Both the position numbers and the translations under genes were made by a program. The notes below the pieces were generated by a model that saw nothing but the letters and a program-made list of their open reading frames with translations, was not told where the DNA came from and searched no databases. 64,000 nt of DNA from an uncultured Bacilli bacterium (lineage in GTDB: Bacteria; Bacillota_I; Bacilli_A; RF39; UBA660): NCBI GenBank assembly GCA_947624135.1, contig CANQIV010000001.1, positions 5,331 to 69,330 on the forward strand, written 5' to 3'. Each line of letters starts with the position of its first letter. Within the stretch, counting starts at the first letter, position 1. This document shows positions 20,246-50,355 of this stretch, one piece after another.

Positions 20246-20355
20246 TAATTATCATATTGAAGTGAGAACAAAGGTTATTTGAAATTCCTAATAGTAAAGT
20301 TGATAAACAACTAATCATCGAAATAATAACACATTTTTAATTCTTGTCACATTTT

Positions 20356-20598: not shown

Positions 20599-20654
20599 AC
20601 TATCACCCTTAATAATATTCTCTAATAAAAGGAATTTTATGTCCGGGAACAGAA

Positions 20655-20698
20655 AAGTCCTGTATGGTATTGTCAAGTCCTGTTTTTTGATATATAAT
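20655..20698 (+). promoter_or_regulatory. divergent promoter/operator region
   Basis: direct repeats AAGTCCTGT at 20655 and 20675 overlapping a TTGTCA-17-TATAAT promoter facing the zinc-ribbon gene. Confidence 0.35.
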
Positions 20699-20748
20699 TA
20701 TATGTAGACAATAATTCTTGTTTAAAGTTGTAAGGAGTGTGGAGTAAC

Positions 20749-21555
20749 ATGGCAATTATTAAATGTCCAAAATGCAACGAAGATGTTTCTGATAAATCAA
20801 CTAAATGTGTTCATTGTGGTCAGGTTTTAATTGAAGAACCAAAGCTATTTTGCGAAGAATGTGGAAATGAAATAAAAAAAAGTGATAAGGTATGCAGTAA
20901 ATGTGGTTGTCCAGTAGATAAAAAGCATGAACCGCAACAAGTTGAAGTTACAAAAGTAAAATTGGGTGGAGGAATATCTAAGAAAACAATTATTATAGGA
21001 ATTGTTTCTATTCTAGTTATTGTTGGAATTATCTTTGCAGTAATAACTATTAATAAGAAGAATGAAGAAAGAAAAGCAAGAGAATTAAGCGAACAATATA
21101 AAGAAAATTTAAGTACTATAACATACAAAATGTTAAATGGAGCTGCACAAGCTGAAGATTGTGGCAACAAAATCAAAAAAGTATGGTCTAACACAATTTG
21201 GGAAGATGATGATCCAGAAACAGATAAATATACTAAAAAGAATGGTGTATTTAATGATGATTTCAATGATTCTTTATCAACTTTATTTGCAGATCCAGAT
21301 TTTATTAAAATTACTGATGGTGTTGAACAAAATAAAACTGAAGTTAATAAGTTAATGAAAGATATGAAAAACCCGCCAGAAGAATGGACAGATGCTTATA
21401 GAGATTTAAAAGATTATTATGATGACTATTTAACTCTTACTAATTTATGCACAAATCCAAGTGGTAGTTTAACTACATATTCTTCTAATTTTAGTAATGC
21501 AGATACTGATACAGTTAATGGATACAGCAAAATGAAGTCATATTTAGATTACTAA
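20749..21555 (+). CDS. double zinc-ribbon membrane protein, hypothetical
   Basis: CPKCN..CVHCG and CEECG..CSKCGC ribbons, one TM helix, acidic extracellular domain. Confidence 0.5.
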   Translation: MAIIKCPKCNEDVSDKSTKCVHCGQVLIEEPKLFCEECGNEIKKSDKVCSKCGCPVDKKHEPQQVEVTKVKLGGGISKKTIIIGIVSILVIVGIIFAVITINKKNEERKARELSEQYKENLSTITYKMLNGAAQAEDCGNKIKKVWSNTIWEDDDPETDKYTKKNGVFNDDFNDSLSTLFADPDFIKITDGVEQNKTEVNKLMKDMKNPPEEWTDAYRDLKDYYDDYLTLTNLCTNPSGSLTTYSSNFSNADTDTVNGYSKMKSYLDY

Positions 21556-21593
21556 TAGAATTAGTAATCTTTTTATTTTAGAGGGAGCAAATT

Positions 21594-22799: not shown

Positions 22800-22882
22800 A
22801 AATAACGATGACTTATCTTTCTAAGTCATCATATTGGTGAAATAAAGTAAATGTTGGAAAAATTTAAGAGAAAATACAAGTT

Positions 22883-22905
22883 ATACAATTAATTTGTATT
22901 TTTTT
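22883..22905 (+). terminator. rho-independent terminator downstream of Ltp-like gene
   Basis: ATACAA-TTAAT-TTGTAT hairpin followed by T7 run; an additional 9-bp perfect hairpin GATGACTTA/TAAGTCATC at 22807-22830 lacks a T run. Confidence 0.5.
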
Positions 22906-23007
22906 ATATTCTTTTTGATAAGAAATAATTTGTTTTATAATTATGTTTTAAACTAAAAGTACTATTATCTATTTCATATTGTAAATTATATTTTAAATTG
23001 TTATCTG

Positions 23008-23277
23008 CTACTTGCTTGGCTTGATTTTAAAACATGTAATAAATTTTTCTAAATTTAGTTTTTTATAGGTAGATTCACATGTTTTAAATTTATAATATAT
23101 TTTTTCAGTAATTTTAATATTGTTTGCTTTCGTAGTAAGTAATTGAGTAATATTTTCCAGTCTATCTAAAGAATAAGCATGAGGTCTGGAGGTTCTAAAT
23201 TTCGCATATTTATTTGATATATGACCTTCCAATTGTTTACTTACAATATTAATCATAATAAAATCTTTTATTACCAC
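23008..23277 (-). pseudogene. orphan 89-aa ORF, possible remnant of a mobile-element gene
   Basis: no RBS or recognisable domain; located immediately outside the left att-like repeat. Confidence 0.2.
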
Positions 23278-23334
23278 AAAAAAATATCAACTTTATTTAG
23301 AAATTGATACTTTTCTATATTAAGTTCAAACTAC

Positions 23335-23364
23335 AAAAGTTCGAACAGATTTCCTAATGGAGCG
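23335..23364 (+). repeat. left att-like direct repeat (copy of tRNA-Gly 3' end region)
   Basis: aaaagttcgaacagatt...aatggagcg matches 33360-33389 at 26/30 positions; preceded by inverted repeat TATCAA...TTGATA. Confidence 0.6.
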
Positions 23365-23509
23365 ATTGTGGAAGATATCTACAACTTTTGCTCATAAACA
23401 ATTTGATATATAAAATATCAATCTTTAATAATATTCTAACACAAATTGCCTAGAATAGCTCGGAAAATTTGCTAATTTGTGGTAAAATATTTTATGGATG
23501 TGAATATTT

Positions 23510-25285
23510 ATGAAATTAAAATCTATAAAAATTGAAAATTTTAAATCTTTTGGAAATGATAATAACTTGTTGATTTTAGAAGATATAAATACGATAATTG
23601 GTAAAAATGAATCTGGTAAAAGTAATCTTATTGAATGTTTAAGCAAAATTAATTTATCTGGAATAGATGATCGTGACTTTTTTCTTAATATAAATAAATA
23701 TACGAAGTTAAAGCCAAAGATAGGAATTGTTTTAATACCATCAGAAGAAGAAAAAAATAAACTAAAAGGAGAAACGCTATTAACAATTAATAATAGATTT
23801 GATATTGATATTGAGGGAAGTTTGACAGAATCAATAAAAAATAATACTATTTTTCAGAATAATAGAGATAAAATGAATGAATTAAATCAAAATGTAAGTA
23901 ATTTATTCAGTGATCAGGAACAACGTAAACATTTCAAGGACCTTATTGAAATGATTAATAATGCAGAAAATAAAATTTTTATTAATTATACATATATTGA
24001 TGGAATAATCAATAAAATAAACAAAAGTGAGGAGTTTTCAGAATTTCTAAGGTATTTACAAGATTGCATTTCATATTTAAATAGTTTAAAAAATTCTTTT
24101 CCAACTTTTATTGAAATAGATAATATAACTTTAAAATCCAAGTATACAAGAAAGAATTTAGTTGATGATAACGATTCTAAAATTATGCTTATTCATCTTT
24201 TAAATGCTATGGAAATGGATATGGATTATTTGATGAGGTATTGGGATTTAGATAACCAAGCTGATAAAGAAAATTATATTGAAGATTTTAATTATAAAAT
24301 ACAAGAATTAATTAGTAAATTTAATGATTTTTATTCACAAGAACGTGTTTATATGAAAGCATCTTTTGAAAACGATTCGTTAAATTTTGTTGTTAAAACA
24401 ACAAAAAAATATATGGATTTTGATGAAAGAAGTAATGGACTTAAATGGTATTTAAATATGTATATCCAACTTGTATCAAAAACAAAAAACTCTAATATTA
24501 ATAATTATGTAATTTTAATAGATGAACCAGGTGTTTATTTACATGTCAATGCACAGAAAGAAGTTTTAAAACTCTTTGAAGACCTTTCTAAGAAAAACAA
24601 TATGATAATCTATACAACTCACTCTCCGTTTATGATTTATGAAAATAAACTTTATAGGGTAAGATTAATTATAAAAGATGAAAATGGTAATAGCAATATT
24701 GGTAATAAGTATTATTCATTGCCACATAAAATGGGGTCTAAAACTGAAACAATTACACCTTTATTAACTGCCATTGGTATGAATATGAATTATAATATTT
24801 TATCTTTTAATAGCCAAGAGGTAAATATTATTACGGAAGGTATATCAGATTATAATTACATAAAAGGTTACTTTCTTTTAACAAAAGAAAAAATGCCTAA
24901 TATTATTCCATCAACAAGTGTGGATAATATACATAATATTGTCTCTATTTTGATTGGCTGGGGATGTAATTTTAAAATTATTATGGATCAAGATAATTCT
25001 GGTAGAGGACAATATAAAGTCTTAATTAATAAAGGATTGACTGATATTTCTAATATTTCTTTTGTGGATGGGCTAAATATTCCTGATAATAAAAAAACTA
25101 TAACTATTGAAGACATATTTTCAGAAAAAGATAAACAACAAATTGGAATAACAAATGAAGACTATAAAGAGGAAAAAGCATATTATTCATTAGAAACATT
25201 AAAAAGAATTGAAAACAAGGATTTTGAATATGATCAAGAAACTATGTGTAATTTTGCAAAAATAATTTTTCAATTATTTGATTAA
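23510..25285 (+). CDS. OLD-family ATP-dependent endonuclease (ABC ATPase + Toprim)
   Basis: N-terminal Walker A GKNESGKSNL, Walker B ILIDEPGVYLH, HSP motif; C-terminal Toprim IITEGISD. Confidence 0.75.
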   Translation: MKLKSIKIENFKSFGNDNNLLILEDINTIIGKNESGKSNLIECLSKINLSGIDDRDFFLNINKYTKLKPKIGIVLIPSEEEKNKLKGETLLTINNRFDIDIEGSLTESIKNNTIFQNNRDKMNELNQNVSNLFSDQEQRKHFKDLIEMINNAENKIFINYTYIDGIINKINKSEEFSEFLRYLQDCISYLNSLKNSFPTFIEIDNITLKSKYTRKNLVDDNDSKIMLIHLLNAMEMDMDYLMRYWDLDNQADKENYIEDFNYKIQELISKFNDFYSQERVYMKASFENDSLNFVVKTTKKYMDFDERSNGLKWYLNMYIQLVSKTKNSNINNYVILIDEPGVYLHVNAQKEVLKLFEDLSKKNNMIIYTTHSPFMIYENKLYRVRLIIKDENGNSNIGNKYYSLPHKMGSKTETITPLLTAIGMNMNYNILSFNSQEVNIITEGISDYNYIKGYFLLTKEKMPNIIPSTSVDNIHNIVSILIGWGCNFKIIMDQDNSGRGQYKVLINKGLTDISNISFVDGLNIPDNKKTITIEDIFSEKDKQQIGITNEDYKEEKAYYSLETLKRIENKDFEYDQETMCNFAKIIFQLFD

Positions 25286-25296
25286 GGAGGTGTATT

Positions 25297-27276
25297 ATGG
25301 CTTTTAAAAGTTATAGTTGGTCTATAGGAACGACAAGTTTTAGAACTAGTCAATTAAATTATAAAATTGAAAGGCAATTACAATTATTAAAGAAATTTTG
25401 GAATGACAACCCTAATTTGAATTGGGACAATGAAACTCAAGAAAAATATTATAATTATTTAAAAGAAAATAATTTTTTATATGGTGAGGCTAGGATTCCA
25501 GATAAGGATGCTAGAGAAAAGACATCAGGTTTAGTAGATATTGGTGTATTAACAAGTGATAGAAAATTAACTGAAGTAGGTTCTAACATTGAACAACTAT
25601 TATATAAAGTAATGAACAAAGATAATATCTTTATGATATCTGAAGATAGCTATAAATATTTATTACAATTTTTAAAACTACAAATTAATAATGCTAATGA
25701 AGGTATAAAAATAAAACCTTTTATTGCTCTTATTTACTTAATTGAAAAATTAGATTACTTATCTTATGATGAATTTACTTATTTGCTTCCACTTTGCAAA
25801 AATAAATATGATGTTAAGAAAATGGCTCAAACGATTAAAAATACTGTAAGAGTTGGGTTTCCTGTTGATGATATTATAACCGAAAAAATACTTGATATGA
25901 ATAATTATATTCAAGCATTATATGATTTTAGCAGAGATTATCCTGTAACCGAAGAAACATTTGAAAGAATAGGATTAAATAGAAAAAGTAAAGCATATGA
26001 TAGACCTTATAATGCAATTTATCATACTTTAGTTGATTTAGTGTTTCATTTAAAGCATAATAATCTTAATGAAAGGCTTCCAAAATATAAGGAATTGTTT
26101 GAAGAATGTAAAAAAATATCTGGTAATGCTAGAATGCTATGGCAAAACTATTTATTTATGGGTGTTAAAATTAATAAAATAGATGAAGAATTTGATAACA
26201 AATTTAAATCATTGGATATTAGTTTATCTAGAAATATTATTGATTTTAAAAAAGAATTTTTTTTAAAAATGCATTTATTTAAATGGAAAGTAAATTTAAG
26301 AGATTATTTTGATTTAAATAAGCGATACTTTTCATTAACAGATATAATAAGATTTGAAGATGAAAAGATAGAATTAGATATGTTGCCTAAATATTATTTT
26401 AAAGATATTATTGATGATTTATTAAATGAAAACTTACTTGATAATGAACAATATTTAAAACAATTTTATTCTGATATTCCACTAGAAAGTATTTCTGAAT
26501 TATATAAAATTGATATAACTAATATTGTTAATAACATTAATAATGACTTAGGAATAAACTTAACACCAGAAAATGTAAATTCTTATATTAAAGATGAAAA
26601 GCTTAAAAATTTTAATGACTTAATTGATCATAAATTTAAAAATGAAGATTTAATTAGAATATTAGAACAAATAAAAAATAGAAATGATGAAGAACTAAAT
26701 TCATATATAACAGATAACGCAGATATTCCAACCATTTTTGAATATATACTTGGTATAGCATGGTATAGAATTAGTGGCAAAAAAGGAAATATTTTAGATT
26801 TTATGAATTTAAGTTTAGATGCAGATTTTTTGCCTAAGACTCATGCTAGTGGAGGAATGGCTGATATAGTTTATAAATATGAAAATAATTCATACCCTAA
26901 ACATGATTTATTAATAGAAGCAACTTTATCTGAATCAACTGGACAAAGAGTTATGGAAATGGAGCCTGTATCTAGACATCTTGGTGAAAATATAAAGCTT
27001 ACAAATAATTTAAATGATTATGCTTTATTCGTTGCTCCTAATTTGGAAGAAAGAATAATATTGGATTTTAGAAACATGAAAACAAGATTCTATCCAAAAG
27101 GTAATGGTGAGTTTATAGAAGGATTAAAAATTATACCAATCGACATAAACATATTAATGAAAATATTACAAAACAATATAAATTATAATGAAATATACAA
27201 TTGGTTTGATAAAGCATTTAAATCTACTATTCCAGATCCACTTTGGTATAGAGAAGAAATTTTAAAAAATATATAA
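25297..27276 (+). CDS. candidate type IIS restriction endonuclease (partner of tandem MTase)
   Basis: 659 aa, no NTP-binding motif; C-terminal block (YR.SGKKG ... GGMADIVY ... HDLLIEAT) has FokI-like cleavage-domain layout (PD...(D/E)x(K/T)); context with double-domain MTase. Confidence 0.4.
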   Translation: MAFKSYSWSIGTTSFRTSQLNYKIERQLQLLKKFWNDNPNLNWDNETQEKYYNYLKENNFLYGEARIPDKDAREKTSGLVDIGVLTSDRKLTEVGSNIEQLLYKVMNKDNIFMISEDSYKYLLQFLKLQINNANEGIKIKPFIALIYLIEKLDYLSYDEFTYLLPLCKNKYDVKKMAQTIKNTVRVGFPVDDIITEKILDMNNYIQALYDFSRDYPVTEETFERIGLNRKSKAYDRPYNAIYHTLVDLVFHLKHNNLNERLPKYKELFEECKKISGNARMLWQNYLFMGVKINKIDEEFDNKFKSLDISLSRNIIDFKKEFFLKMHLFKWKVNLRDYFDLNKRYFSLTDIIRFEDEKIELDMLPKYYFKDIIDDLLNENLLDNEQYLKQFYSDIPLESISELYKIDITNIVNNINNDLGINLTPENVNSYIKDEKLKNFNDLIDHKFKNEDLIRILEQIKNRNDEELNSYITDNADIPTIFEYILGIAWYRISGKKGNILDFMNLSLDADFLPKTHASGGMADIVYKYENNSYPKHDLLIEATLSESTGQRVMEMEPVSRHLGENIKLTNNLNDYALFVAPNLEERIILDFRNMKTRFYPKGNGEFIEGLKIIPIDINILMKILQNNINYNEIYNWFDKAFKSTIPDPLWYREEILKNI

Positions 27277-27277
27277 A

Positions 27278-27307
27278 AGATAGGTGTTGAGTATCTATCT
27301 TTTTTTT
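27278..27307 (+). terminator. rho-independent terminator after candidate REase gene
   Basis: AGATAG-loop-CTATCT hairpin followed by T8. Confidence 0.5.
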
Positions 27308-27362
27308 GATATAATGTTATTAGAAAATACGATGCCGAAAATGGAAATGGAGATGTAAAAAT

Positions 27363-29330
27363 ATGAAAACTATTTCAATTAATAATAGAAGATATATAGG
27401 TAGTAAAGCAAGAATGATTGATTTCATTAATGAAACTATAAAAAAAGAAAAAATTGAGTTTTCTTCATTTTTAGATTTATTCGGTGGAACGGGAATAGTT
27501 GGAAATTTTTTTAATGACCAAAAAACAAAAATATATGTTAATGATTTGTTAAAATCTAATTACTTATCATATTTAGCATGGTTTGGAAATGAAAAAATAG
27601 ATAAAAACAAAATAAAGATTTTTATAAATAAATATAATTCTCTTTCTAATTTAGAAGAAAATTATTTTTCAATTAATTTTAGTGATACTTATTTTAGTAA
27701 AGATAATTGTAAAAAAATTGGTTATATAAGAGAAGATATTGAAGCAAATTATCTTTCCAATAATTTAAATACTAGAGAAAGAGCTATTCTTATAACATCT
27801 TTATTATATGCTATGGATAAAATTGCAAATACAGTTGGGCATTATGATGCATATAGAAAAAATGGAAATTTAGATAAAAAATTAGAATTGTGTATGCTTG
27901 ATTTAAAATCCAACATTAATAATAAAAATAATAAAGTCTTTAATGAAGACTCTAATGAACTTGTAAAAAGTATAAAAGCAGATGTTGTTTATATTGATCC
28001 CCCATATAATTCAAGACAATATTCTGATGCATATCATTTATTAGAAAATGTTGCAATGTGGGAAAAAAATGAAGTTCATGGTGTTGCAAAAAAAATGGAA
28101 AGAAATGGAATTAAAAGTAAATATTGCTCTGTGTCAGCTCCTCTTGCTTTTAAAGATTTAATTGATAACATAGATGCTAAATACATAATTGTTTCATATA
28201 ACAATATGGGAACAAAAGGTGCAGGAAGGTCACAAGCTAAAATAAGTGATGATGATATAATAAATACTTTAAGATTGAAAGGAAAAGTAAAAGTATATGA
28301 AACTGATTTTAATCAGTTTAACACAGGAAAAACCCATATTGACAATCATAAAGAAAGATTATTTATATGTAAAGTTGGAAAAAGCACAAAGAAAAAAACT
28401 AGACATATAGAACCGATTATTGATAAAGTAAAATCTCCATTAAATTATACGGGTGGGAAATATAAATTATTAAATCAAATAATACCTATATTCCCTAATA
28501 ATCTAGACTTATTTGTAGATTTATTCTCTGGTGGATCTAATGTTGGTGTTAATGTTAATGCTAAAAGAATAGTATGTGTAGATAAACAAGAAGAGATTAT
28601 TAGAGTTATGGAATTGTTTAAAAAATATGAAGATGGTTTTATTATAAGTTCTTTAGAAAAAATTATTGATAAATATAATTTAAGTAATTCTTTATTAAAT
28701 GGATATAAAGCATATAATTGTACTAGCGATAAGGGATTAGGAACATATAATAAATCAAAATATTTAGAATTGAGAAAAGATTATAATAATATGAGAGATA
28801 ATTCTACAGAAAAAGATTTATTATTTTTAACATTAGTAATTTATGGATTTAATAATCAAATTAGATTTAATTCTAATGGTGAATTTAATATGCCTGTCGG
28901 GAAAAGAGATTTTAATAATTCTTTAAGAAAAAATTTAAAAAATTTTATAACAAAACTGAAGTCAAAAAATATAGAATTTATTAATTCTGATTTTAGAGAA
29001 TTTGCAATTGAAACAACCAATAACACTTTAGTATATTGCGATCCACCTTATTTTTTAGGGACAGCAAGTTATAATGAAAATGGTGGATGGACAAAACAAG
29101 ATGAAATAGATTTATTAAATTATTTAGCTGTTTTAGATAGTAAAGGTGTAAAATTTGCATTATCAAATGTAATCGAACATAAGGGTAATAAAAATATTAT
29201 ACTTGAAGCTTGGATTAAAGAACATAAATATAATGTTCATATAATTGATTGTGATTATAATAATTCTAATTATCACAAACAACAAGGAAGTATTACGAAA
29301 ACAACAGAAGTCTTAATAACAAATTACTAA
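27363..29330 (+). CDS. tandem two-domain N6-adenine DNA methyltransferase (Dam/D12 class fused pair)
   Basis: two FxGxG motifs (FLDLFGGTG, FVDLFSGGS) and two DPPY motifs (YIDPPYNS, YCDPPYFL); 655 aa. Confidence 0.85.
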   Translation: MKTISINNRRYIGSKARMIDFINETIKKEKIEFSSFLDLFGGTGIVGNFFNDQKTKIYVNDLLKSNYLSYLAWFGNEKIDKNKIKIFINKYNSLSNLEENYFSINFSDTYFSKDNCKKIGYIREDIEANYLSNNLNTRERAILITSLLYAMDKIANTVGHYDAYRKNGNLDKKLELCMLDLKSNINNKNNKVFNEDSNELVKSIKADVVYIDPPYNSRQYSDAYHLLENVAMWEKNEVHGVAKKMERNGIKSKYCSVSAPLAFKDLIDNIDAKYIIVSYNNMGTKGAGRSQAKISDDDIINTLRLKGKVKVYETDFNQFNTGKTHIDNHKERLFICKVGKSTKKKTRHIEPIIDKVKSPLNYTGGKYKLLNQIIPIFPNNLDLFVDLFSGGSNVGVNVNAKRIVCVDKQEEIIRVMELFKKYEDGFIISSLEKIIDKYNLSNSLLNGYKAYNCTSDKGLGTYNKSKYLELRKDYNNMRDNSTEKDLLFLTLVIYGFNNQIRFNSNGEFNMPVGKRDFNNSLRKNLKNFITKLKSKNIEFINSDFREFAIETTNNTLVYCDPPYFLGTASYNENGGWTKQDEIDLLNYLAVLDSKGVKFALSNVIEHKGNKNIILEAWIKEHKYNVHIIDCDYNNSNYHKQQGSITKTTEVLITNY

Positions 29331-29339
29331 GATAATAAA

Positions 29340-29383
29340 AGATGATATAAGCATTTAAATTAATGCTCAATATCATCTTTTTC
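29340..29383. terminator. bidirectional terminator between MTase and relaxase genes
   Basis: AGATGATAT...ATATCATCT 9-bp stem with nested AGCATT/AATGCT hairpin, T run after; overlaps relaxase stop. Confidence 0.5.
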
Positions 29384-30739
29384 TATTGCATAATCTTTTA
29401 AATTATTTAATTTACTTGGATTAGAAAGCAAATTGAAATTATCTTTATCTAAAGCACCATGTTCATATAATTCTTTAGCAAATTCTTCATATCTTTTGTC
29501 TTTTTTAACAAAAATTTTATCCATTAAGAATTGAACTAATCGATAAATCATATCTTTAAAATGTTCAAGTGTTGACTTTAAAGAATGATTTTCTTCTTTT
29601 AATTCTTGAATTTCATTTTCTTTTTCTTTGATATTTTCGTTTAATTTATCAACTTCTTGGTTAAGTGATTCATTATTTTTTGTTAATAATTTTAATCTTT
29701 GTCGATTACTAATTAACTCATTACTAATTTCTTTTAAAGTAACGGATAACTCTTGAATGTTTTGATATTCAGCAATAGTTTTATCTATTAAATCTATAAA
29801 AACAATTGCTTTATCACGATCCTTAACATCTATAACTAACTGATTTTTAATAAGCCCTTTTGCTTTTAAGCTTTCAAGAATTTCTTTAATTTCAGAAATA
29901 TTATTAGATAATTTTTCTGTTTTTTCTTTAGCACTTTTTAAATTATTTTGATGTATTTCAATAGACTTTTTAATCTTTTGGTAGTTTTCCATTTCAGTTA
30001 TATGATAATCTCGATTTCTGCCTTTTAATTTAGCCTTTAATTGATAATTTACTTGATATTCTTTGTTAAAAGATTCCATACAACGCACTCTCATTTTATC
30101 TTGAATTTTTGTTAATGATTCTTTAGTAAAGACATCAGATTTTCCAACTTGTTTAGACATTCCATATTTATTTTTATATTTAACTGGAACACCAATTATA
30201 TGAAGATGTGGACTTGTTTCATCATAATGAATGATTGCACTTGCTATTTTAAAGTTAGGGACAACAGTTTCTAAATCGTTAACTTGTTCTTTAAATACAT
30301 TAGTCATTTTCTTTTTATAATCAATAACTTTTGTATTCCAAAATTCCATATCACCAAGCTCAATAATTATTTCACAAGCCAAATCTTTTTTAGAATTATT
30401 GCTAATATGAGTGAAGTAATCTTTTATTTTTCTATCATCGCGAGCTTGTTTGTTATTATATTCAAGTTTTGCTTCTTCAAACTCATCTATATATAATTTT
30501 TTAATATCATCAACTATCGAAAATGAACCTCTAATAACTTCAATATTTTCTCTATCATTATCATATTTTCTACAATTATGATTATCACATTTTGCTAATC
30601 CTGATGCACTTTGAATAGCACTATTACCCATAGAAGTAGAACCACTAACATTACTTTTACCACTTTTTCTAGAACTATTTTTCTTATTTTTATCATTACT
30701 TAAATGGAAAGAGTAACTTAAGGTTGCTATATAAATCAC
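29360..30739 (-). CDS. MobV/Pre-family relaxase (plasmid recombination enzyme)
   Basis: Mob_Pre motif III HYDETSPHLHIIGVP (HxDExxPHxH), upstream HN.R-like segment, C-terminal coiled coil. Confidence 0.8.
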   Translation of the reverse strand: MIYIATLSYSFHLSNDKNKKNSSRKSGKSNVSGSTSMGNSAIQSASGLAKCDNHNCRKYDNDRENIEVIRGSFSIVDDIKKLYIDEFEEAKLEYNNKQARDDRKIKDYFTHISNNSKKDLACEIIIELGDMEFWNTKVIDYKKKMTNVFKEQVNDLETVVPNFKIASAIIHYDETSPHLHIIGVPVKYKNKYGMSKQVGKSDVFTKESLTKIQDKMRVRCMESFNKEYQVNYQLKAKLKGRNRDYHITEMENYQKIKKSIEIHQNNLKSAKEKTEKLSNNISEIKEILESLKAKGLIKNQLVIDVKDRDKAIVFIDLIDKTIAEYQNIQELSVTLKEISNELISNRQRLKLLTKNNESLNQEVDKLNENIKEKENEIQELKEENHSLKSTLEHFKDMIYRLVQFLMDKIFVKKDKRYEEFAKELYEHGALDKDNFNLLSNPSKLNNLKDYAIEKDDIEH

Positions 30740-30780
30740 ATCTCCTTTCTTTGTTTGTTTTTAGAGTATATTTTGTCTTT

Positions 30781-30849
30781 GACAAAATTATTAACCCCCT
30801 AGGAATTTTGTCATACTAACAAAATACTGGGGGCTAAGGCTCGCCTTAG
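30781..30849. promoter_or_regulatory. putative oriT / mob promoter region
   Basis: GACAAAATT/AATTTTGTC 9-bp IR, CCCCC/GGGGG IR, CTAAGG-CTCG-CCTTAG IR, all in the 150-bp leader upstream of the relaxase gene. Confidence 0.4.
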
Positions 30850-30890
30850 AATCCGAAATTAACTATCGTTAATTTTATAAGTAGAAGAAA

Positions 30891-32825
<1,935 letters not shown>

Positions 32826-32924
32826 CTAAAATCATCTCCTTTTCTCATTTTAAATTCAAAAAAGAGAAGTAAAGGTACTACTATAAAATAATACTTTCAC
32901 TTCTCTAAACTACATTGTAAGACT

Positions 32925-32939
32925 CTTGGTAACTTGGTT
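32925..32939. promoter_or_regulatory. perfect inverted repeat GGTAAC-TTG-GTTACC upstream of recombinase gene
   Basis: direct reading; candidate operator. Confidence 0.25.
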
Positions 32940-33000
32940 ACCATCTATATTAATTATACAACATTTGTCGTAAAAAGTCCATTGTCTAGGAAGTGGTGTA

Positions 33001-33327
33001 TTACTTGATTTTATTGATATATTCTTCTAAATCTGATAATTCAATTTTATTTTTCAAATTTTTAATATAAATATCAGTAGAATAATTAAATGCAAGAAAT
33101 GTTATACCTTTGATAATAATTCTATGAGGTTCTACATAGTTAAGATTAGATTTATCAATTTTTCTAATACTGCCGTTAATGAAAGTAGGAGTCGTCTTAC
33201 AAAACTCACAAATAAACTCTAATCTTTGTTTTAAAGACTTTTCAAAGGGTATTTCTTGTTTAAGTATCTTAATCATAAACACCATCCTTCCTTTAGGATG
33301 ATTTCTTTGTAACAACAAAAAAACCAA
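33001..33327 (-). CDS. hypothetical protein between recombinase and tRNA (possible directionality factor)
   Basis: 108-aa ORF, no motif recognised. Confidence 0.3.
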   Translation of the reverse strand: MVFLLLQRNHPKGRMVFMIKILKQEIPFEKSLKQRLEFICEFCKTTPTFINGSIRKIDKSNLNYVEPHRIIIKGITFLAFNYSTDIYIKNLKNKIELSDLEEYINKIK

Positions 33328-33359
33328 TCTTTCGATTGATTTCTATATATCAATGTTCG

Positions 33360-33389
33360 AAAAGTTCGAACAGATTCGTCAATGGAGCG
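33360..33389 (+). repeat. right att-like direct repeat overlapping tRNA-Gly 3' end
   Basis: see 23335-23364; flanked by ATTGAT...ATCAAT inverted repeat and tandem GTTCGAA half-sites. Confidence 0.6.
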
Positions 33390-33456
33390 GGTGATGGGAA
33401 TCGGACCCACGTTATCAGCTTGGAAGGCTGGAGTTCTACCATTGAACTACACCCGC
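33383..33456 (-). tRNA. tRNA-Gly (anticodon UCC)
   Basis: cloverleaf folded by eye: acceptor GCGGGTG/CACCCGC, D-arm AGTTCAATGGTAGAACT, anticodon loop CUUCCAA, T-arm GTGGGTCCGATTCCCAT, encoded CCA. Confidence 0.85.
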
Positions 33457-42628: not shown

Positions 42629-42701
42629 ATCATAAATATTTAGTTTTTTCTTTCTTTTTTATATAAAGTGTAGTAAAATATTAATAGTAAGGGTGAACGA
42701 T

Positions 42702-43670
42702 ATGGGATTATTCAATAAATTTAAAAACTTATTTACTAAAAATAATAAAGAAGATATAGAAGCATTTGATAAAGGACTAGAAAAGACAAGAAAAGAATTT
42801 GTAAATAAAATAGGTATATTAAATAGTAAATATAAAAAAGTAAGTAATGAATATTTTGATGAATTAGAAGAAATTCTCATAATGGCTGATATAGGAGTTA
42901 ATACTGTTATTGAATTTATCGATAAATTAAAAAAACGTGTAAAGCATGAAAATATAACTGATAGCGAAGATTTAAAAGAGGTTATAATAGATGAGATGTT
43001 CATAATTTATGTAAATAATCAAATAGTAGTAAATAAAATTAATTATGCTACATCAGGACCAACAGTTATTTTATTTGTAGGAGTAAATGGTGTAGGTAAG
43101 ACAACTACTATTGGTAAATTTGCATCTAAATTAAAAGATATGGATAAAAAAGTAATGCTTGTTGCAGGCGATACATTTAGAGCAGGCGCACAAGAGCAAT
43201 TAAAAGAATGGGCACAAAGGACAGATTCTAAAATAGTAAGTGGAGAATCTAAAGATCCTTCTAGCGTAGTTTATGATGGTGTAAAACAAGCAATAGAAGA
43301 AAATTATGATGTAGTTTTAATAGATACAGCAGGAAGGCTTCAAAATAAAACTAATTTAATGAATGAATTAGAAAAAATGAATAAAGTAATAGGTAAATTA
43401 ATACCTAATGCTCCACATGAAACTTTACTTGTAATAGACGCTACAACAGGTCAAAATGGAATTAGTCAAGCAAAAAGTTTTAAAGAAATAACTAATATAA
43501 CAGGAATAGTTTTAACAAAACTAGATGGTACTGCAAAAGGTGGAATAGTACTTGCTATAAAAGAAGCAGTAGATATTCCAGTAAAATTTGTAGGACTTGG
43601 AGAAAAAGAAAAAGATTTAAGAACATTTGATATAGAAAAATATATATATGGATTATTTAAGGATATGTGA
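42702..43670 (+). CDS. ftsY: signal recognition particle receptor FtsY
   Basis: SRP GTPase motifs GVNGVGKTTT, DTAGRLQ, TKLDG; start re-picked at ATG after AGGGTGA. Confidence 0.9.
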   Translation: MGLFNKFKNLFTKNNKEDIEAFDKGLEKTRKEFVNKIGILNSKYKKVSNEYFDELEEILIMADIGVNTVIEFIDKLKKRVKHENITDSEDLKEVIIDEMFIIYVNNQIVVNKINYATSGPTVILFVGVNGVGKTTTIGKFASKLKDMDKKVMLVAGDTFRAGAQEQLKEWAQRTDSKIVSGESKDPSSVVYDGVKQAIEENYDVVLIDTAGRLQNKTNLMNELEKMNKVIGKLIPNAPHETLLVIDATTGQNGISQAKSFKEITNITGIVLTKLDGTAKGGIVLAIKEAVDIPVKFVGLGEKEKDLRTFDIEKYIYGLFKDM

Positions 43671-43673
43671 TTT

Positions 43674-43943
43674 ATGAATACAAAAATAGTAGATGTAAAA
43701 GAATTTAAAAATGATAGAGTAGGAATACTTGTAGAGGTAGTTTTAATTGAAATGATGATAATATTTTCAATACTTAATTTAATTAATGAAGCTTTTTTAC
43801 CCGCACTCTATATAATAATATCTATGATATTATTTACAATGGCTTATAATAATATTAAAATATTTAAGAAAAAATATATGACGCCAGTATATATAATAAC
43901 AGGTTTATTTGTTGTTATTACAACATTTATGGAGTATTTATAG
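43674..43943 (+). CDS. small membrane protein, hypothetical
   Basis: two TM helices, 89 aa, wedged between ftsY and ylxM. Confidence 0.35.
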   Translation: MNTKIVDVKEFKNDRVGILVEVVLIEMMIIFSILNLINEAFLPALYIIISMILFTMAYNNIKIFKKKYMTPVYIITGLFVVITTFMEYL

Positions 43944-44227
43944 TGAATATATATTATGTAGAACTTTTTGATTATTATGGTGAACTTTTTACCGATAAAC
44001 AAAAAGAATATTTTAAAGATTATTATTTTAATAATTTAACGCTTCAGGAAATAGCTGATAATAATAAAGTAAGTAAAAATGCAGTTCATAAGAATATAAA
44101 AGATATAACAAAAAAGTTAGAATATTATGAAGATAAATTAAAACTATATAATAATAAAAAAGAAATAGAAAAATTGATAATTAATATAGATAAAGGAATA
44201 AAGGAAAAAATAGAGGAGTTGATTTAG
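43943..44227 (+). CDS. ylxM: UPF0122 / YlxM-like putative HTH protein
   Basis: conserved position after ftsY; sigma-70 region-4-like LTLQEIADNNKVSKNAVHKNI. Confidence 0.65.
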   Translation: MNIYYVELFDYYGELFTDKQKEYFKDYYFNNLTLQEIADNNKVSKNAVHKNIKDITKKLEYYEDKLKLYNNKKEIEKLIINIDKGIKEKIEELI

Positions 44228-44228
44228 T

Positions 44229-45983
44229 GTGTTTGGTAAAATATTATATATTAGTGATAGTATAGCTAATATAGGAATACCTAATGGTACGCCTATTAAT
44301 ATGGATCTTTTAAATATGCATATAGTATTTGAAGATGGGGAAAGAAAAGTACTTGGTGAGATAGAAGATGTATCAGAATCTACTATAAAAGTACATTTTT
44401 TAGGTGTAATAGAAAATAATAAATTTATAGGTGGAGTTCTTAGAAAACCTACTTTGGAAGCTAAAATTAGATTTGTGACAGATGATGAATTAAAACTTAT
44501 AACAGGTGAAACAGGAGAAGGAATGTTTAAATTAGGAGTTAGTCCTCTTTATAATGATAAACCAATATATGTAGATATAAATGAATTATGTAGTAATCAT
44601 TTAGCAATCTTTGGTAATACTGGTAGTGGTAAATCATATGGTGTAGCAAGTTTTATACAAAGTATGTTTTATAATACTAATTTTCAACCTTATAGAGCAA
44701 ATTATATGATATTTGATGCTTATGGTGAATATCATAATGCATTTGAAAGATTAAGCGAAGTTAACCCTAATTATCAATTCAAGTACTACACAACAAATAG
44801 AACAGATACAAATGGAGAATTAATAAGAATACCTCTTTGGTTACTTGATATAGATGATTATGCTCTTCTATTGAATGCAGAAAGACATTCTCAATTACAA
44901 ATAATAGAAAAAATGATTAAACTTGCAAGAATAATATCAATGGATACTACTGAAGCAGTAGCTTATAAAAATCATTTAATAGCTAAAGCAATTTTAGATG
45001 TCCTATATACCAATCAAACATCTTCTAGTAAAAGAAATGATATATTTACAATAATTGCAAGTTGTAATACAGAACAATTTAACTTAGAAACACCTATTCA
45101 AGGAATAGGATATGTTAGAAAATTTAGAGAATGTTTTACAATAGATAGATCAGGAGATTTTACTGAAAGTGTACTTATAACTCAATATATAACAAGTTTT
45201 ATAAATGAATCTCTTGATAACTATGAAGCACCTAATGATCATTTATTTACGTTAGATACATTAGAAAAAGCTTTAGATTTTACACTTATTAGTGATGGAT
45301 TTTTAAGAAATAATAAACTATATGATGAAGCAATAACTTTAAAAGTTAGATTACATTCTATCGCAATTAGTGAAGATGCAGAATTTTTCAATTTTCCAAC
45401 ATATGTCGATTTAAATAATTATATAGGTAGTTTAGTTACTAAAAACAATAAGAAATCTCAAATAGTTAACTTTAACTTAGAAGATATAGATGATAGACTT
45501 GCTAAAACTATGGTTAAAATATATTCAAAAATGTTATTTACATTTACAAAACATTTACAATCTCGTGGTTCGATACCATTCCACATTTTACTTGAAGAAT
45601 CACATAGATATGTACAAAATGATAATGATAATTTTTTACTTGGATATAATATATTTGAAAGAATTGCAAAAGAAGGTAGAAAATTTGGGCTTATATTAAA
45701 TTTAGTTTCACAAAGACCAGTTGAACTTTCTGAAACAGTTATATCTCAAATAAGTAATTTCTTAATATTTAAAATGACACATCCAAGAGATTTAGATTAT
45801 ATAAAGAAAATGTTACCAAATATGAGTGCTGAAATAATGGAAAAACAAAAAAGTTTACAACCTGGTATGTGCGTTGCTTTTGGTAGAGCATTTAAAGTAC
45901 CAATGATAATTAAAATGCCATTACCTAATCCAGAACCACATTCAAGTAACGTTGATGTAGTAAAAATTTGGCAAGCTGTATAA
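44229..45983 (+). CDS. HerA/FtsK-superfamily (DUF87-like) ATPase with N-terminal HAS-barrel-like domain
   Basis: Walker A FGNTGSGKSYG, Walker B HILLEESHRY, EGRKFGL...SQRP arginine-finger region; GTG start 1 nt after ylxM stop. Confidence 0.7.
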   Translation: MFGKILYISDSIANIGIPNGTPINMDLLNMHIVFEDGERKVLGEIEDVSESTIKVHFLGVIENNKFIGGVLRKPTLEAKIRFVTDDELKLITGETGEGMFKLGVSPLYNDKPIYVDINELCSNHLAIFGNTGSGKSYGVASFIQSMFYNTNFQPYRANYMIFDAYGEYHNAFERLSEVNPNYQFKYYTTNRTDTNGELIRIPLWLLDIDDYALLLNAERHSQLQIIEKMIKLARIISMDTTEAVAYKNHLIAKAILDVLYTNQTSSSKRNDIFTIIASCNTEQFNLETPIQGIGYVRKFRECFTIDRSGDFTESVLITQYITSFINESLDNYEAPNDHLFTLDTLEKALDFTLISDGFLRNNKLYDEAITLKVRLHSIAISEDAEFFNFPTYVDLNNYIGSLVTKNNKKSQIVNFNLEDIDDRLAKTMVKIYSKMLFTFTKHLQSRGSIPFHILLEESHRYVQNDNDNFLLGYNIFERIAKEGRKFGLILNLVSQRPVELSETVISQISNFLIFKMTHPRDLDYIKKMLPNMSAEIMEKQKSLQPGMCVAFGRAFKVPMIIKMPLPNPEPHSSNVDVVKIWQAV

Positions 45984-45987
45984 ATTA

Positions 45988-46010
45988 AAAAGCAGATTTC
46001 TGCTTTTTTT
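45988..46010 (+). terminator. rho-independent terminator after HerA-like gene
   Basis: AGCAGA-TT-TCTGCT followed by T7. Confidence 0.6.
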
Positions 46011-46095
46011 ATTGTGTTTAACCTTGATAAAAATTAATATAAATGTTATTATTTATATAGATAAAAAGTATAGATAATAAGAGAGGAATAAAATT

Positions 46096-49000
46096 ATGAA
46101 AAAAGAAAATAAAATAAAAGCATTTACACTAGTAGAACTTTTAACTGTAATAGTAATATTAGCAGTAATAGCTTTAATAGCTGTTCCAAAAATATTAGGA
46201 ATAATAAATAATACAAAATTTAAAAAATATAAAATAGAAGAAGAATATATGAAAGAAGCAGCAAAATTATATTATACTAGTAATAATATGGACGAATATG
46301 AACCAGTAGATTTACAAACATTAGTAGATAATAATTTTACAAATCCAGTAGTAGATTCAGGAAATGGAGGCTATTGTAAAGGGAAAGTTATAGAGGATGA
46401 AAAAGGAGTTTTAAAAGGTTGTTTAAAATGTAGTAATTATATTACTAAAGGTTGTGGATATACAGAAGATGATCCAGATGATAAACCAGTAGAAGAACCA
46501 GATGAACCAGTAATAATAGATGCAAATCCGGGAATAATATGTGGAGATAAAAAAGAAGAAGAATACGATAGTATGACAGAATGTCATATAAAAAGTGTAG
46601 AAGATTTAGTAGAATTTACAAAAATGGTAAATGATGAAAAACACACATATACATTTTTAAATAAAATAGTATATTTAGATAAGAATTTAGATATAAAAAA
46701 TTATGAAAAAGGTAAATCATACTTAAATGCAGATGCTCTTGCAGATTTTGATATAAATGGTGATGGAGACGTTACTAGTTTAAAAGATGAAATGACAACA
46801 GATAAAGGATTTTTACCAATAGGAACAAAAAGTCATAGTTTTGCAGGGACATTTGAAGGAAATGCTTACACAATAAAAAATTTAATGATAAATAGACCTG
46901 ATGTTGATAATGTAGGATTATTTGGATATGCTTATTATGCAGAAATAAAAGGATTTAATTTAGAGAATGTAAATATAACAGGTAATAATAATGTAGGAGG
47001 GGTTGCAGGATATAGTTATACAGGTAAAGTTAAAGAAATAACATTAAGCGGAAATATAACAGGTCATGACTATGTTGGAGGAATAACAGGGCATTATGCT
47101 AATGGAGCAAACTCCATAAGTGTAATATTAAATGCAAATATTACAGGTAATGATCATGTATATGGAATAAGTGATTCTAATTCTAACAGCAAAGGAGTAG
47201 TAGAAAGTGGAACTATAACAGGAAATTTAAATGTATATGGAGGTTCTTCTTCTAGTTCATCATCACTTGTAAATGAAAAAGTAATAATTGATGCTCCAGA
47301 AGATGCTATAACCCTTGGTGGAACTTTATATAAAGATACTACATATGGAGATTTAAATTTATACGATACTCCTAATAATGCAAGCATAATAGATACATAT
47401 TTAGGTGGAGATAATGATAGTTCAGGGTATTATTTTGATTATAATAAGAATGGAAAATTAGTAATAAAGAGTACAAAAAAAGACCCATTAGATTACACTT
47501 TACAAGGAGAAGGAACAAAGGAAGACCCATATTTAATATATACTTATGAAGATTATAAAAAAATAGCGTTAATGCCAACAGAAGCAAACTATTATAAATT
47601 GATGGCTGATATAGATTTTACAAATAAAAAATATTATATGATAGGAACATATGCATATAATTTTAAAGGAAATTTTGATGGTAATGTTCATACATTAAAA
47701 AATATGGAATTAGAGGGATATAATTATGTCGGTCTATTTGGATATTTAGATGGTGGCGAAATGAAAGGATTTAATATAAAAAATATAAATGTATTAGGTC
47801 AAAATGATTATGTAGGAGGGGTTGCAGGATATAGTTATACAGGTAAAGTTAAAGAAATAACATTAAGCGGAAATATAACAGGTCACGACTATGTTGGAGG
47901 AATAACAGGGCGTTATGCTAATGGAGCAAACTCCATAAGTGTAATATTAAATGCAAATATTACAGGTAATGATCATGTATATGGAATAAGTGATTCTAAT
48001 TCTAACAGCAAAGGAGTAGTAGAAAGTGGAACTATAACAGGAAATTTAAATGTATATGGAGGTTCTTCTTCTAGTTCATCATCACTTGTAAATGAAAAAG
48101 TAATAATTGATGCTCCAGAAGATGCTATAACCCTTGGTGGAACTTTATATAAAGATACTACATATGGAGATTTAAATTTATACGATACTCCTAATAATGC
48201 AAGCATAATAGATACATATTTAGGTGGAGATAATGATAGTTCAGGGTATTATTTTGATTATAATAAGAATGGAAAATTAGTAATAAAGAGTACAAAAAAA
48301 GACCCATTAGATTACACTTTACAAGGAGAAGGAACAAAGGAAGACCCATATTTAATATATACTTATGAAGATTATAAAAAAATAGCGTTAATGCCAACAG
48401 AAGCAAACTATTATAAATTGATGGCTGATATAGATTTTACAAATAAAAAATATTATATGATAGGAACATATGCATATAATTTTAAAGGAAATTTTGATGG
48501 TAATGTTCATACATTAAAAAATATGGAATTAGAGGGATATAATTATGTCGGTCTATTTGGATATTTAGATGGTGGCGAAATGAAAGGATTTAATATAAAA
48601 AATATAAATGTAATAGGTCAAAATGATTATGTAGGTGGAATAACAGGATATAGTTATAATCCAAGTAGCGTTATTAAAGAAATAACATTAAGTGGAAATA
48701 TAACAGGTCATAATAGTGTTGGAGGAATAGCAGGTTCTACTGGAAATGGTGCAGTAGTTTCAAGTGTAATAGTAAATGCAAATGTAACAGGTAATACTTA
48801 TGTATATGGAATTTCTTATAATGGTACAGGAGTAATCGAAAGTGGAACTATAAAAGGAAATTCATCAGTATATGGTGGTTTTGGTTGGGGTTCTACAGCA
48901 TTCGTAAATAAAAAAGTTAAAATAGAATCAGAAAGTACACCTAATGTAGGTGGAACACTATATGAAGATACAATATATGGAAACCTAAATTTATATGATA

Positions 49001-50355
49001 CTCTTGATAAAACAAATATAATAGATACATATTTAGGTGGAGATAATGATAGTTCAGGATATTATTTTGATTATAATAAGAATGGAAAATTAGTAATAAA
49101 AAGTACAGAAAAAGACCCAATAGATTACACCTTACAAGGAGAAGGAACAGAGGAAACCCCATATTTAATATATACTTATGAAGATTATAAAAAGATAGCG
49201 TTAATGCCAACAGAAACAAACTATTATAAATTAATGGCTGATATAGATTTTACAAATAAAAAATATTATATGATAGGTACAAATGCATACAGATTTAAAG
49301 GAAATTTTGATGGTAATGCTTATACATTAAAGAATATGGAATTAGAAGGATATAAATATGTTGGATTATTTGGATATATGGATAGTTCATCAGAAATAAA
49401 AGGTTTTAATGTAGAAAACATAAATGTATTAGGACAAAACGATTATGTAGGTGGAATTGCTGGAGAGTGTTATTCTAGTCAAGTTAAAGAAATAACATTA
49501 AGTGGAAATATAACAGGTAATAATCGTGTTGGAGGAATAGTAGGTCATAATGAAGGTAGTACAACATCAATAGCGAGCGTAATAGTAAATGCGAATGTTA
49601 CAGGTAATACTTATGTATATGGAATTTCTTATAATGGTACAGGAGTAATCGAAAGTGGAACTATAAAAGGAAATTCATCAGTATATGGTGGTTTTGGTTG
49701 GGGTTCTACAGCATTCGTAAATGAAAAAGTAAAAATAGAAGCAACAGGTACACCTAGTTTAGGTGGTAAACGTTTCCCTGAAAATCATTATAATGTTTTA
49801 AGTGAATATGCACTATTAAAAAATAGTAGTAATTATATAATAGATACACCATATAGTGGAGATACAGATAATTCAGGATATTGGTTTGATTATAACGATT
49901 ATGGAGATGACATAATAGTAGTAAAAGCAGGAAGCGCAGCAACAAATCCAAATGTTAATCCAAATAATCCTGGCGAAACATCAGAACCAACAATAGTACA
50001 TGAAAAAACAACAAATCCAGATAAACCATTCCCAGAATGTAAAGTAACTAGATTTGATACATATGGAAGAGGATTTACCGCATCATATTCATGTACAGAT
50101 GCAGAGTCAATAGTTGAAATAAAACACATATATTGGGTAAAAGCGGATGTAGATGATTATGATTCATTAGTAGAGTGGAAAAACATAACTCCAGGACCAT
50201 CTACAAGTTATAGTAGTGTATGGACAGAAAGTAGTGCGGCTGGTCAAGGAATAACACCGCCATATCCAGGAAATTGTTATTATTTCTATTACGGCGCTAA
50301 AAACCAAGCAGGTAATGAAAGAATATACAGAACTGGTTATTGTTTAAGTTATTAA
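46096..50355 (+). CDS. giant type IV pilin-like protein with GLUG-motif repeat modules
   Basis: class III (prepilin) signal MKKENKIK-AFTLVELLTVIVILAVIALIAVP; four ~273-aa modules with GLUG-like YVGG(I/V)(A/T)G motifs; Cys-containing C-terminal domain; 1419 aa. Confidence 0.75.
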   Translation: MKKENKIKAFTLVELLTVIVILAVIALIAVPKILGIINNTKFKKYKIEEEYMKEAAKLYYTSNNMDEYEPVDLQTLVDNNFTNPVVDSGNGGYCKGKVIEDEKGVLKGCLKCSNYITKGCGYTEDDPDDKPVEEPDEPVIIDANPGIICGDKKEEEYDSMTECHIKSVEDLVEFTKMVNDEKHTYTFLNKIVYLDKNLDIKNYEKGKSYLNADALADFDINGDGDVTSLKDEMTTDKGFLPIGTKSHSFAGTFEGNAYTIKNLMINRPDVDNVGLFGYAYYAEIKGFNLENVNITGNNNVGGVAGYSYTGKVKEITLSGNITGHDYVGGITGHYANGANSISVILNANITGNDHVYGISDSNSNSKGVVESGTITGNLNVYGGSSSSSSSLVNEKVIIDAPEDAITLGGTLYKDTTYGDLNLYDTPNNASIIDTYLGGDNDSSGYYFDYNKNGKLVIKSTKKDPLDYTLQGEGTKEDPYLIYTYEDYKKIALMPTEANYYKLMADIDFTNKKYYMIGTYAYNFKGNFDGNVHTLKNMELEGYNYVGLFGYLDGGEMKGFNIKNINVLGQNDYVGGVAGYSYTGKVKEITLSGNITGHDYVGGITGRYANGANSISVILNANITGNDHVYGISDSNSNSKGVVESGTITGNLNVYGGSSSSSSSLVNEKVIIDAPEDAITLGGTLYKDTTYGDLNLYDTPNNASIIDTYLGGDNDSSGYYFDYNKNGKLVIKSTKKDPLDYTLQGEGTKEDPYLIYTYEDYKKIALMPTEANYYKLMADIDFTNKKYYMIGTYAYNFKGNFDGNVHTLKNMELEGYNYVGLFGYLDGGEMKGFNIKNINVIGQNDYVGGITGYSYNPSSVIKEITLSGNITGHNSVGGIAGSTGNGAVVSSVIVNANVTGNTYVYGISYNGTGVIESGTIKGNSSVYGGFGWGSTAFVNKKVKIESESTPNVGGTLYEDTIYGNLNLYDTLDKTNIIDTYLGGDNDSSGYYFDYNKNGKLVIKSTEKDPIDYTLQGEGTEETPYLIYTYEDYKKIALMPTETNYYKLMADIDFTNKKYYMIGTNAYRFKGNFDGNAYTLKNMELEGYKYVGLFGYMDSSSEIKGFNVENINVLGQNDYVGGIAGECYSSQVKEITLSGNITGNNRVGGIVGHNEGSTTSIASVIVNANVTGNTYVYGISYNGTGVIESGTIKGNSSVYGGFGWGSTAFVNEKVKIEATGTPSLGGKRFPENHYNVLSEYALLKNSSNYIIDTPYSGDTDNSGYWFDYNDYGDDIIVVKAGSAATNPNVNPNNPGETSEPTIVHEKTTNPDKPFPECKVTRFDTYGRGFTASYSCTDAESIVEIKHIYWVKADVDDYDSLVEWKNITPGPSTSYSSVWTESSAAGQGITPPYPGNCYYFYYGAKNQAGNERIYRTGYCLSY
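46990..48633 (+). repeat. perfect (or near-perfect) 819-bp tandem duplication inside pilin-like gene, plus two diverged downstream copies
   Basis: identical antisense ORFs 47154-47387 / 47973-48206 and 47372-47587 / 48191-48406; GTTGCAGG at 47002 and 47821. Confidence 0.85.

Follow-up and report, generated by a model that had tools for sequence, protein, structure and literature searches.

The 64,000-nt window analyzed here (positions 5,331 to 69,330 of contig CANQIV010000001.1 from an uncultured Bacilli bacterium; G+C content of 24%) carries a compact forward-strand gene block at 42693-46013, in which a gene encoding a HerA-family P-loop ATPase stands directly behind ftsY and ylxM of the signal recognition particle (SRP) operon. 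The block begins with ftsY, encoding the SRP receptor (42693..43670), which was identified by TIGR00064 (358.6 bits, cut-off 260.7) and by the Pfam domains SRP54_N and SRP54. It is followed by a hydrophobic open reading frame (ORF) of 89 aa (43674..43943), encoding a predicted small membrane protein, and by ylxM (43943..44227), encoding a UPF0122/p13-like helix-turn-helix protein (Pfam UPF0122, 8.2e-23; NF045758, 90 bits, cut-off 80). A first-pass annotation, made from the sequence alone, had placed ftsY and ylxM upstream of the ATPase gene, and with both scores above the curated cut-offs these assignments are genuine. The herA-like gene itself (44229..45983) encodes a protein of 584 aa and starts at a GTG codon. 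The block is closed by an intrinsic-terminator-like hairpin (45987-46008) and a T run ending at 46013, which were found by pattern scan, with a predicted RNA fold of -10.8 kcal/mol (z = -2.9), and a hairpin and T run comparable to this terminator are present 3' of herA in 27 of 60 related loci. The giant pilin-like gene described behind the terminator is also in place (46096-50355), and a methylation motif was found in its product. An Rfam scan of the window returned tRNA-Gly only, and SRP RNA was not found.

The four genes of the block are spaced by 3, -1, and +1 nt. The stop codon of the 89-aa ORF overlaps the GTG start of ylxM (TAGTG), and the ylxM stop codon TAG (44225-44227) is followed by a single base and then by the herA GTG at 44229, as originally read. 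This start is supported by the N-terminus of the protein (MFGKI...), which is kept in 16 HerA homologues with identities down to 42%. A Shine-Dalgarno-like GAGGAG motif (44213..44218) lies within the 3' end of ylxM, 10 nt ahead of the herA GTG, and may function as such. Judged by its tight packing behind ylxM, herA may be translationally coupled to this gene or expressed by read-through from it. The 89-aa ORF between ftsY and ylxM had been overlooked in the first-pass annotation. Its product has hydropathy maxima at residues ~20-55 and 75-85 and gave no Pfam or NCBIfam matches, and phmmer searches identified homologues at the same position, between ftsY and ylxM, in most of the SRP-linked loci.

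The earlier proposal that the 584-aa protein belongs to the HerA/FtsK superfamily was borne out by domain, sequence, and structure comparisons. The Pfam model PF01935 (DUF87, the HerA central domain) matches with 89.8 bits (cut-off 23.2; 3.6e-25), and the PADLOC model HerA PDLC04102 matches with 3.9e-104 over aa 47-581, while the match to Pfam FtsK_SpoIIIE (PF01580) is confined to the P-loop region at aa 100-150. The best sequence matches among solved structures are all HerA proteins, including 9c1m (HerA-DUF4297; 6.3e-42), 8ziq, 8xau, and 8wiv, with further matches to Sulfolobus HerA (4d2i), 8j4u, and 8yho. An AlphaFold2 model of the monomer, built from a 44-sequence alignment, has a predicted local distance difference test score (pLDDT) of 86 and a predicted template-modelling score (pTM) of 0.82. 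The predicted domain layout consists of a HAS barrel (aa ~1-105), a RecA-like core in two parts (~110-205 and ~410-570), and a helical bundle inserted between these parts (~208-402). The N-terminus had been described as HAS-barrel-like, and this is supported by nine beta strands in the model (residues 5-116) and by the Foldseek alignments to solved HerAs, which at full length cover 600-650 columns with the HerA barrel included. In the Foldseek search against the PDB only HerA chains reached a probability of 1.0, the top match being SaHerA from Staphylococcus aureus (8yhx, template-modelling score of 0.75-0.77), a protein built from a HAS domain, an ATPase, and an extended nine-helix bundle (PMC11514289).

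The three motifs that had been singled out in the protein are those of a HerA motor, and little or no variation was seen at their key residues among the 44 family members. Conservation was assessed in two family alignments of 16 and 44 sequences, to which the following counts refer. In the Walker A motif (P-loop) GNTGSGKS (aa 129-136; 44613..44636), no variation is seen at G129, G132, G134, and K135 in either alignment or, among the 16 sequences, at S136, which is at least 90% conserved among the 44; the motif aligns with GSTGSGKS of the 9c1m HerA. FHILLEESH (aa 451-459; 45579..45605) contains the Walker B strand together with the catalytic acidic pair. Of its residues, E456 is invariant, with conservation of at least 90% for E457 and H459, and LLEESH aligns with the EEAH motif of the solved HerAs. 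The GRKFGL...SQRP segment (aa 483-497; 45675..45719) has four invariant residues, G483, K485, G487, and Q495, and three with conservation of at least 90% (R484, R496, and P497). This segment aligns with EGRKYGL...VSQRPSE of the 9c1m and 8ziq HerAs, and by comparison with the family R496 is presumed to be the trans-acting arginine finger. By domain score, HAS barrel, and catalytic motifs alike, 44229-45983 encodes a genuine HerA-family ATPase.

In the source annotations, members of this family are named merely 'ATP-binding protein' or 'DUF87 domain-containing protein', and our literature searches on HerA with ylxM, HerA with RF39, and HerA or DUF87 with housekeeping returned nothing relevant. 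Some members carry low-complexity tails of 170-360 residues, rich in S, T, N, and P, at either the C- or the N-terminus (L-numbers are used here for related loci and P-numbers for family proteins from other metagenomes). Fusion partners were considered as a clue to function and dropped, as the longer members (P0121, P0122, P0127, and P0124) have such tails alone and no extra Pfam domains. P0121 contains the motif (E)HNPALDFG three times. In P0127 both the Walker A motif (GNDGFGKS) and the Walker B motif (LLIDNAH) are degenerate, which suggests that this protein may be an inactive paralogue.

Compared with characterized systems, the window protein is closest in architecture to the HerA of Sir2-HerA (S. 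aureus 8YHO/8YHX; Escherichia coli 8J4U/8SU9), with which it shares the HAS barrel, the RecA-like ATPase, and the extended helical bundle, as well as the Walker A, EE(A/S)H, and GRK-G...QRP motifs. In Sir2-HerA complexes, Sir2 docks onto the HAS-barrel face of HerA (PMC11514289). However, the identity is just 20-30%, ylxM stands upstream in place of SIR2, and the gene is chromosomal, lies among housekeeping genes, is inherited vertically, and shows a low ratio of nonsynonymous to synonymous substitution rates (dN/dS). The scores against the NCBIfam anti-phage HerA models are 164.7 (NF042944, cut-off 850) and 147.1 (NF042943, cut-off 800). DUF4297-HerA (9C1M, 8ZIQ) is the top sequence match among solved structures and its C-terminal ATPase half aligns well, but the match falls in two stretches with a middle helical region that cannot be aligned by sequence, and there is no DUF4297 nuclease nearby. 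The HerA-NurA systems (Sulfolobus 4D2I, Thermococcus 9X1M, and Deinococcus) have the same fold family and motor motifs, but NurA was not found among the annotated neighbours in any locus; the repair-HerA models of NCBIfam score 108 (NF040819, cut-off 970) and 116.9 (NF040937, cut-off 800). FtsK/SpoIIIE belong to the same P-loop superfamily, but the window protein has no membrane anchor and no FtsK_alpha or FtsK_gamma match, whereas true FtsKs in related loci have both domains. The NCBIfam models for the transport ATPases CedD (51.8, cut-off 600) and CD1110 VirB4-like (26.9, cut-off 325) give partial matches, and unlike in the VirB4 and CedB-CedD systems the only candidate membrane component nearby is the 89-aa transmembrane (TM) ORF, separated from herA by ylxM. 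The window protein is thus a HerA member that lacks the defining context features of every characterized HerA system. That no known HerA partner is adjacent had been pointed out before, and this extends beyond the window, since neither Sir2, DUF4297, nor NurA was found next to herA here or in ~60 related loci.

The usual gene order in Firmicutes is ftsY-ylxM-ffh, and the first-pass annotation had herA occupying the position of ffh. This did not hold. In 25 related loci an ORF of 431-442 aa, encoding an FtsY paralogue, lies 0-5 kb downstream of herA, in the same direction, and in four of these (L017, L018, L027, and L048) ffh adjoins herA directly. The copy in L010 is a canonical Ffh with the domains SRP54_N, SRP54, and SRP_SPB and is named signal recognition particle protein by NCBI. 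A search elsewhere in the genome also recovered the gene from the strain itself. The contig L074 overlaps window positions 1-4724 with 99.98% identity and thus represents the same strain, and at 9047-10351 it encodes an intact Ffh with all three SRP54 domains (N, G, and M), flanked by tgt and a gene for a class I aminoacyl-tRNA synthetase. This places ffh 5.3-6.6 kb before the first base of the window and ~49.5 kb upstream of herA. With ffh downstream in relatives and present in this strain on L074, herA was inserted between ylxM and ffh in a lineage-specific manner and does not substitute for ffh, and the herA-ffh linkage is broken by rearrangement in this strain. Relative to the canonical order, ftsY and ylxM are retained in their usual arrangement, and the 89-aa TM ORF and herA are inserted, with a variable gene slot before ffh.

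Two explanations that the first-pass annotation had itself named as counting against its reading, a divergent Ffh or an assembly chimera, were both rejected. The herA product gave no matches to the SRP54 N, G, or M (SRP_SPB) domains in Pfam or NCBIfam, and with FtsY as the phmmer query FtsY itself was the sole match in the window; a canonical Ffh is moreover encoded in the same strain. The chimera was rejected because the identical gene order recurs in dozens of independent assemblies.

To place herA in its lineage, one genome per GTDB species was scanned, which gave 61 loci. These derive from metagenome-assembled genomes (MAGs) of animal guts filed as uncultured 'Bacilli', 'Tenericutes', or Mycoplasmatota, including Candidatus Fimihabitans, which NCBI lists under Mycoplasmatota incertae sedis; we take the MAGs to belong to GTDB order RF39. 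In 49 of the 61 loci ftsY and ylxM, with or without the TM ORF between them, lie directly upstream of herA, and the outer flanks are unrelated. An ATPase embedded in the SRP operon, noted as unusual at the outset, is therefore a real and conserved feature. The gap between ylxM and herA does not exceed 25 nt in any of these 49 loci (mode 9; 1 nt in the window). Neighbour-joining placed the SRP-linked copies in a single clade nested among non-SRP copies, with the defence-type HerAs outside, and the linkage to the SRP operon thus arose once. Across 50 loci the identities of HerA and FtsY to the respective window proteins are correlated (r = 0.90); HerA averages 76% and FtsY 80%, with the means of YlxM and the TM ORF lower. 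Against three relatives, dN/dS is 0.10-0.12 for herA, 0.06-0.08 for ftsY, and 0.24-0.30 for the 89-aa ORF. The G+C content at third codon positions (GC3) of herA is 0.089, equal to that of the neighbouring genes, and the surroundings in the window are of a housekeeping kind (addB, addA, polA, ssb, and htrA). Based on the stable synteny, the divergence tracking that of FtsY, the low dN/dS, and the host-like GC3, herA is vertically inherited under strong purifying selection in the manner of a core gene. Recent horizontal transfer or carriage by a mobile element was considered and rejected, given the host-like composition and stable synteny. A close HerA homologue was not found in phage genomes, and the nearest homologues on plasmids, with 27-29% identity, come from SIR2-HerA pairs of Enterococcus and Listeria, of which they form the HerA half and in which SIR2 overlaps the start of herA.

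In contrast to the block itself, the slot 3' of herA varies by species and holds genes for PBP5-like carboxypeptidases, glycerophosphodiester phosphodiesterases, Cys-rich secreted proteins, or RecA. A pilin-like protein gene is found there in the window and in L019, L043, L045, and L065. A conserved association of herA with large pilin-like genes, suggested for checking by the first-pass annotation, was rejected, as unrelated genes fill the slot from species to species. The same applies between herA and ffh, where mostly secreted-protein genes, many of them unrelated, are found across species. In L075, from a strain with 99.67% identity to the window, an element of 1.6 kb that encodes a UPF0236-family transposase (11791-13379) lies just past the herA terminator, flanked by an 8-bp duplication of window positions 46011-46018; with a transposase inserted there, the slot 3' of the terminator appears to be insertion-prone. 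In the window, the slot gene at 46096-50355 (forward strand) encodes a 1419-aa protein with a prepilin-type N-terminal methylation motif and GLUG/M26-N-like segments. Three to four modules of 813-819 nt are repeated in tandem in this gene, two of them being 99-100% identical, and same-strain assemblies break inside it. Tandem Repeats Finder was blank on the gene, the period being above 500, and the modules were resolved by a separate repeat search. Directly 3' of ffh in L016 (11785-16359), and also in L024, L017, L019, and L010, a gene of ~1500 aa with two FtsK/SpoIIIE ATPase stretches was observed, which presumably resembles EssC, the type VII secretion ATPase.

The sister clades of the SRP-linked copies (36-48% identity) occupy other housekeeping neighbourhoods, namely after yqeG-yqeH, before sepF-divIVA, near HIT, cotE, or rpsP, or near prsA-like rotamases. 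In one sister clade (L060, L062, and L064) herA is immediately ahead of sepF-divIVA, a cell-division neighbourhood, with a complete ftsK and two genes for M16 peptidases just upstream of herA in L064. Some genomes carry two copies, one in the SRP operon and one after yqeG-yqeH (L051/L059, L047/L057, and L044/L058); these paralogues are ~46% identical to each other's clade, and L051 and L059 lie ~16 kb apart on CAMXQX010000002.1. In L048, a similar small TM ORF stands directly ahead of herA-ffh, and ftsY and ylxM are missing from the locus. In L071 and L064, a complete FtsK (alpha, motor, and gamma domains) is encoded 2-3 kb from herA, and L037, whose genome belongs to the SRP-linked clade, has an FtsK ORF with alpha and motor domains.

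Farther upstream in the window, ~17946-33456 is an apparent integrated mobile/defence island ending at a tRNA-Gly gene (33383-33456, minus strand). It encodes AAA_15/AAA_21 ATPases (17946-18809 and 23510-25285), an AlwI-family restriction endonuclease (25297-27276), a D12 adenine methyltransferase (27363-29330), and, on the minus strand, a Mob_Pre relaxase (29360-30739) and, beside the tRNA-Gly gene, a large serine recombinase (30891-32825). The island end at tRNA-Gly is ~9 kb upstream of ftsY, with addB, addA, and polA between the island and the operon. The AddAB-type pair located there consists of an AddB-like PD-(D/E)XK protein and an AddA-like helicase of the UvrD family. In addition, 14090-16720 (forward strand) encodes an 876-aa protein in which four 'helicase-associated' HA (PF03457) repeats come after a ResIII helicase domain, and its end is overlapped by a 111-aa ORF without a family match.

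With regard to function, the leading alternative to a housekeeping role is that the protein is an anti-phage defence ATPase of the Sir2-HerA or DUF4297-HerA kind, which would either have its effector encoded elsewhere in the genome or act alone. Its top PADLOC match is HerA PDLC04102 (3.9e-104), its nearest solved relatives are defence HerAs, and the plasmid homologues closest to it come, as the HerA halves, from the SIR2-HerA pairs in Enterococcus and Listeria. We nevertheless regard this as unlikely, since not a single adjacent effector was seen in ~60 loci from several clades, the identity to any defence HerA is at most 30%, the scores are far under the NCBIfam anti-phage cut-offs (165 against 850 and 147 against 800), and the gene is outside the mobile/defence island at ~18-33 kb. 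The stable synteny, the divergence tracking FtsY, and a dN/dS of ~0.1 argue in the same direction. A functional tie to the operon is somewhat less probable again. Here, HerA would either work with YlxM, which occupies the upstream, overlapping slot held by Sir2 in the Sir2-HerA pairs, or act with the 89-aa membrane protein in a membrane-transport or SRP-related process resembling that of VirB4 or CedB-type ATPases. It would account for the ylxM-herA gap, which never exceeds 25 nt in the 49 loci, for the conservation of the membrane ORF within the same block, and for L048, which keeps the small TM ORF, herA, and ffh without ftsY and ylxM; the weak CedD and VirB4-like family matches and a variable slot rich in secreted or pilin-like proteins also fit. 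However, these matches are partial and far under the cut-offs, the SRP linkage arose once, and the sister clades have no adjacent SRP genes, ylxM, or conserved membrane ORF.

A related and slightly more doubtful proposal is that this orphan HerA clade is a hitherto unrecognized non-defence cellular motor of reduced-genome gut Bacilli that has gained YlxM as a new partner, perhaps together with the 89-aa membrane protein. If true, such a partnership would tie the SRP operon to a motor acting on DNA or RNA, and YlxM, a small DNA-binding protein that has long lacked an explanation, would obtain a function. Substitution for FtsK/SpoIIIE as the chromosome-segregation translocase of a reduced genome would agree with the shared superfamily, with the sister-clade copies that adjoin sepF-divIVA, and with the long disordered tails of some members, which are reminiscent of the FtsK linker. 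This we consider very improbable because FtsK coexists with herA in related genomes, as a full protein encoded 2-3 kb away in L071 and L064 and as an alpha-plus-motor ORF in L037.

The reading we favour, with about even confidence, is that the window gene belongs to an effector-less, vertically inherited HerA clade with the standing of a core gene, encoding what is probably a nucleic-acid motor in a housekeeping or constitutive role. According to this proposal, a distinct HerA clade without an adjacent partner would have become a core gene of uncultured, very AT-rich gut lineages of Bacilli or Mycoplasmatota-like bacteria. In one sub-lineage, to which this genome would belong, herA would then have been fixed between ylxM and ffh together with the small membrane ORF, giving the tightly packed block of ftsY, TM ORF, ylxM, and herA closed by a terminator. 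The ffh gene was retained; it stands downstream of herA in relatives and has been displaced by ~50 kb in this strain. Judging from the solved HerAs, the protein is expected to form a hexameric ring, through whose central pore nucleic acid, probably DNA, would be moved at the expense of ATP by means of the intact Walker A, Walker B, and arginine-finger residues. Its role may be constitutive or housekeeping, such as DNA maintenance or surveillance, and its position in the SRP operon would mainly provide co-expression with essential genes and not reflect a part in protein targeting.

Several observations weigh against this proposal. Its chief weakness is that we found no obvious vacant DNA-handling job for the herA product: AddAB, RuvAB, and FtsK-type translocases are encoded in this or related genomes, and end resection is already covered by the AddAB-type pair in the window. 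No partner was identified among the adjacent genes checked in ~60 loci, the closest characterized relatives are all defence proteins (at most 30% identity), and all carriers are uncultured organisms. In addition, the tight and conserved linkage to ylxM, here treated as incidental, could signal a functional tie.

Bacterial HerA proteins are known as helpers of the nuclease NurA or as scaffolds and activators of toxic anti-phage effectors. A bacterial HerA that has no adjacent effector, is conserved about as strongly as ftsY, and is kept in a small, reduced genome is surprising for the HerA and defence-system field, with a practical weight that is limited by the uncultured state of its carriers. 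It would imply either that HerA rings may have a stand-alone cellular job or that a defence scaffold may have been domesticated in these bacteria. The conserved packing of herA behind ylxM would, in turn, offer a concrete hypothesis for ylxM, a gene of unclear function.

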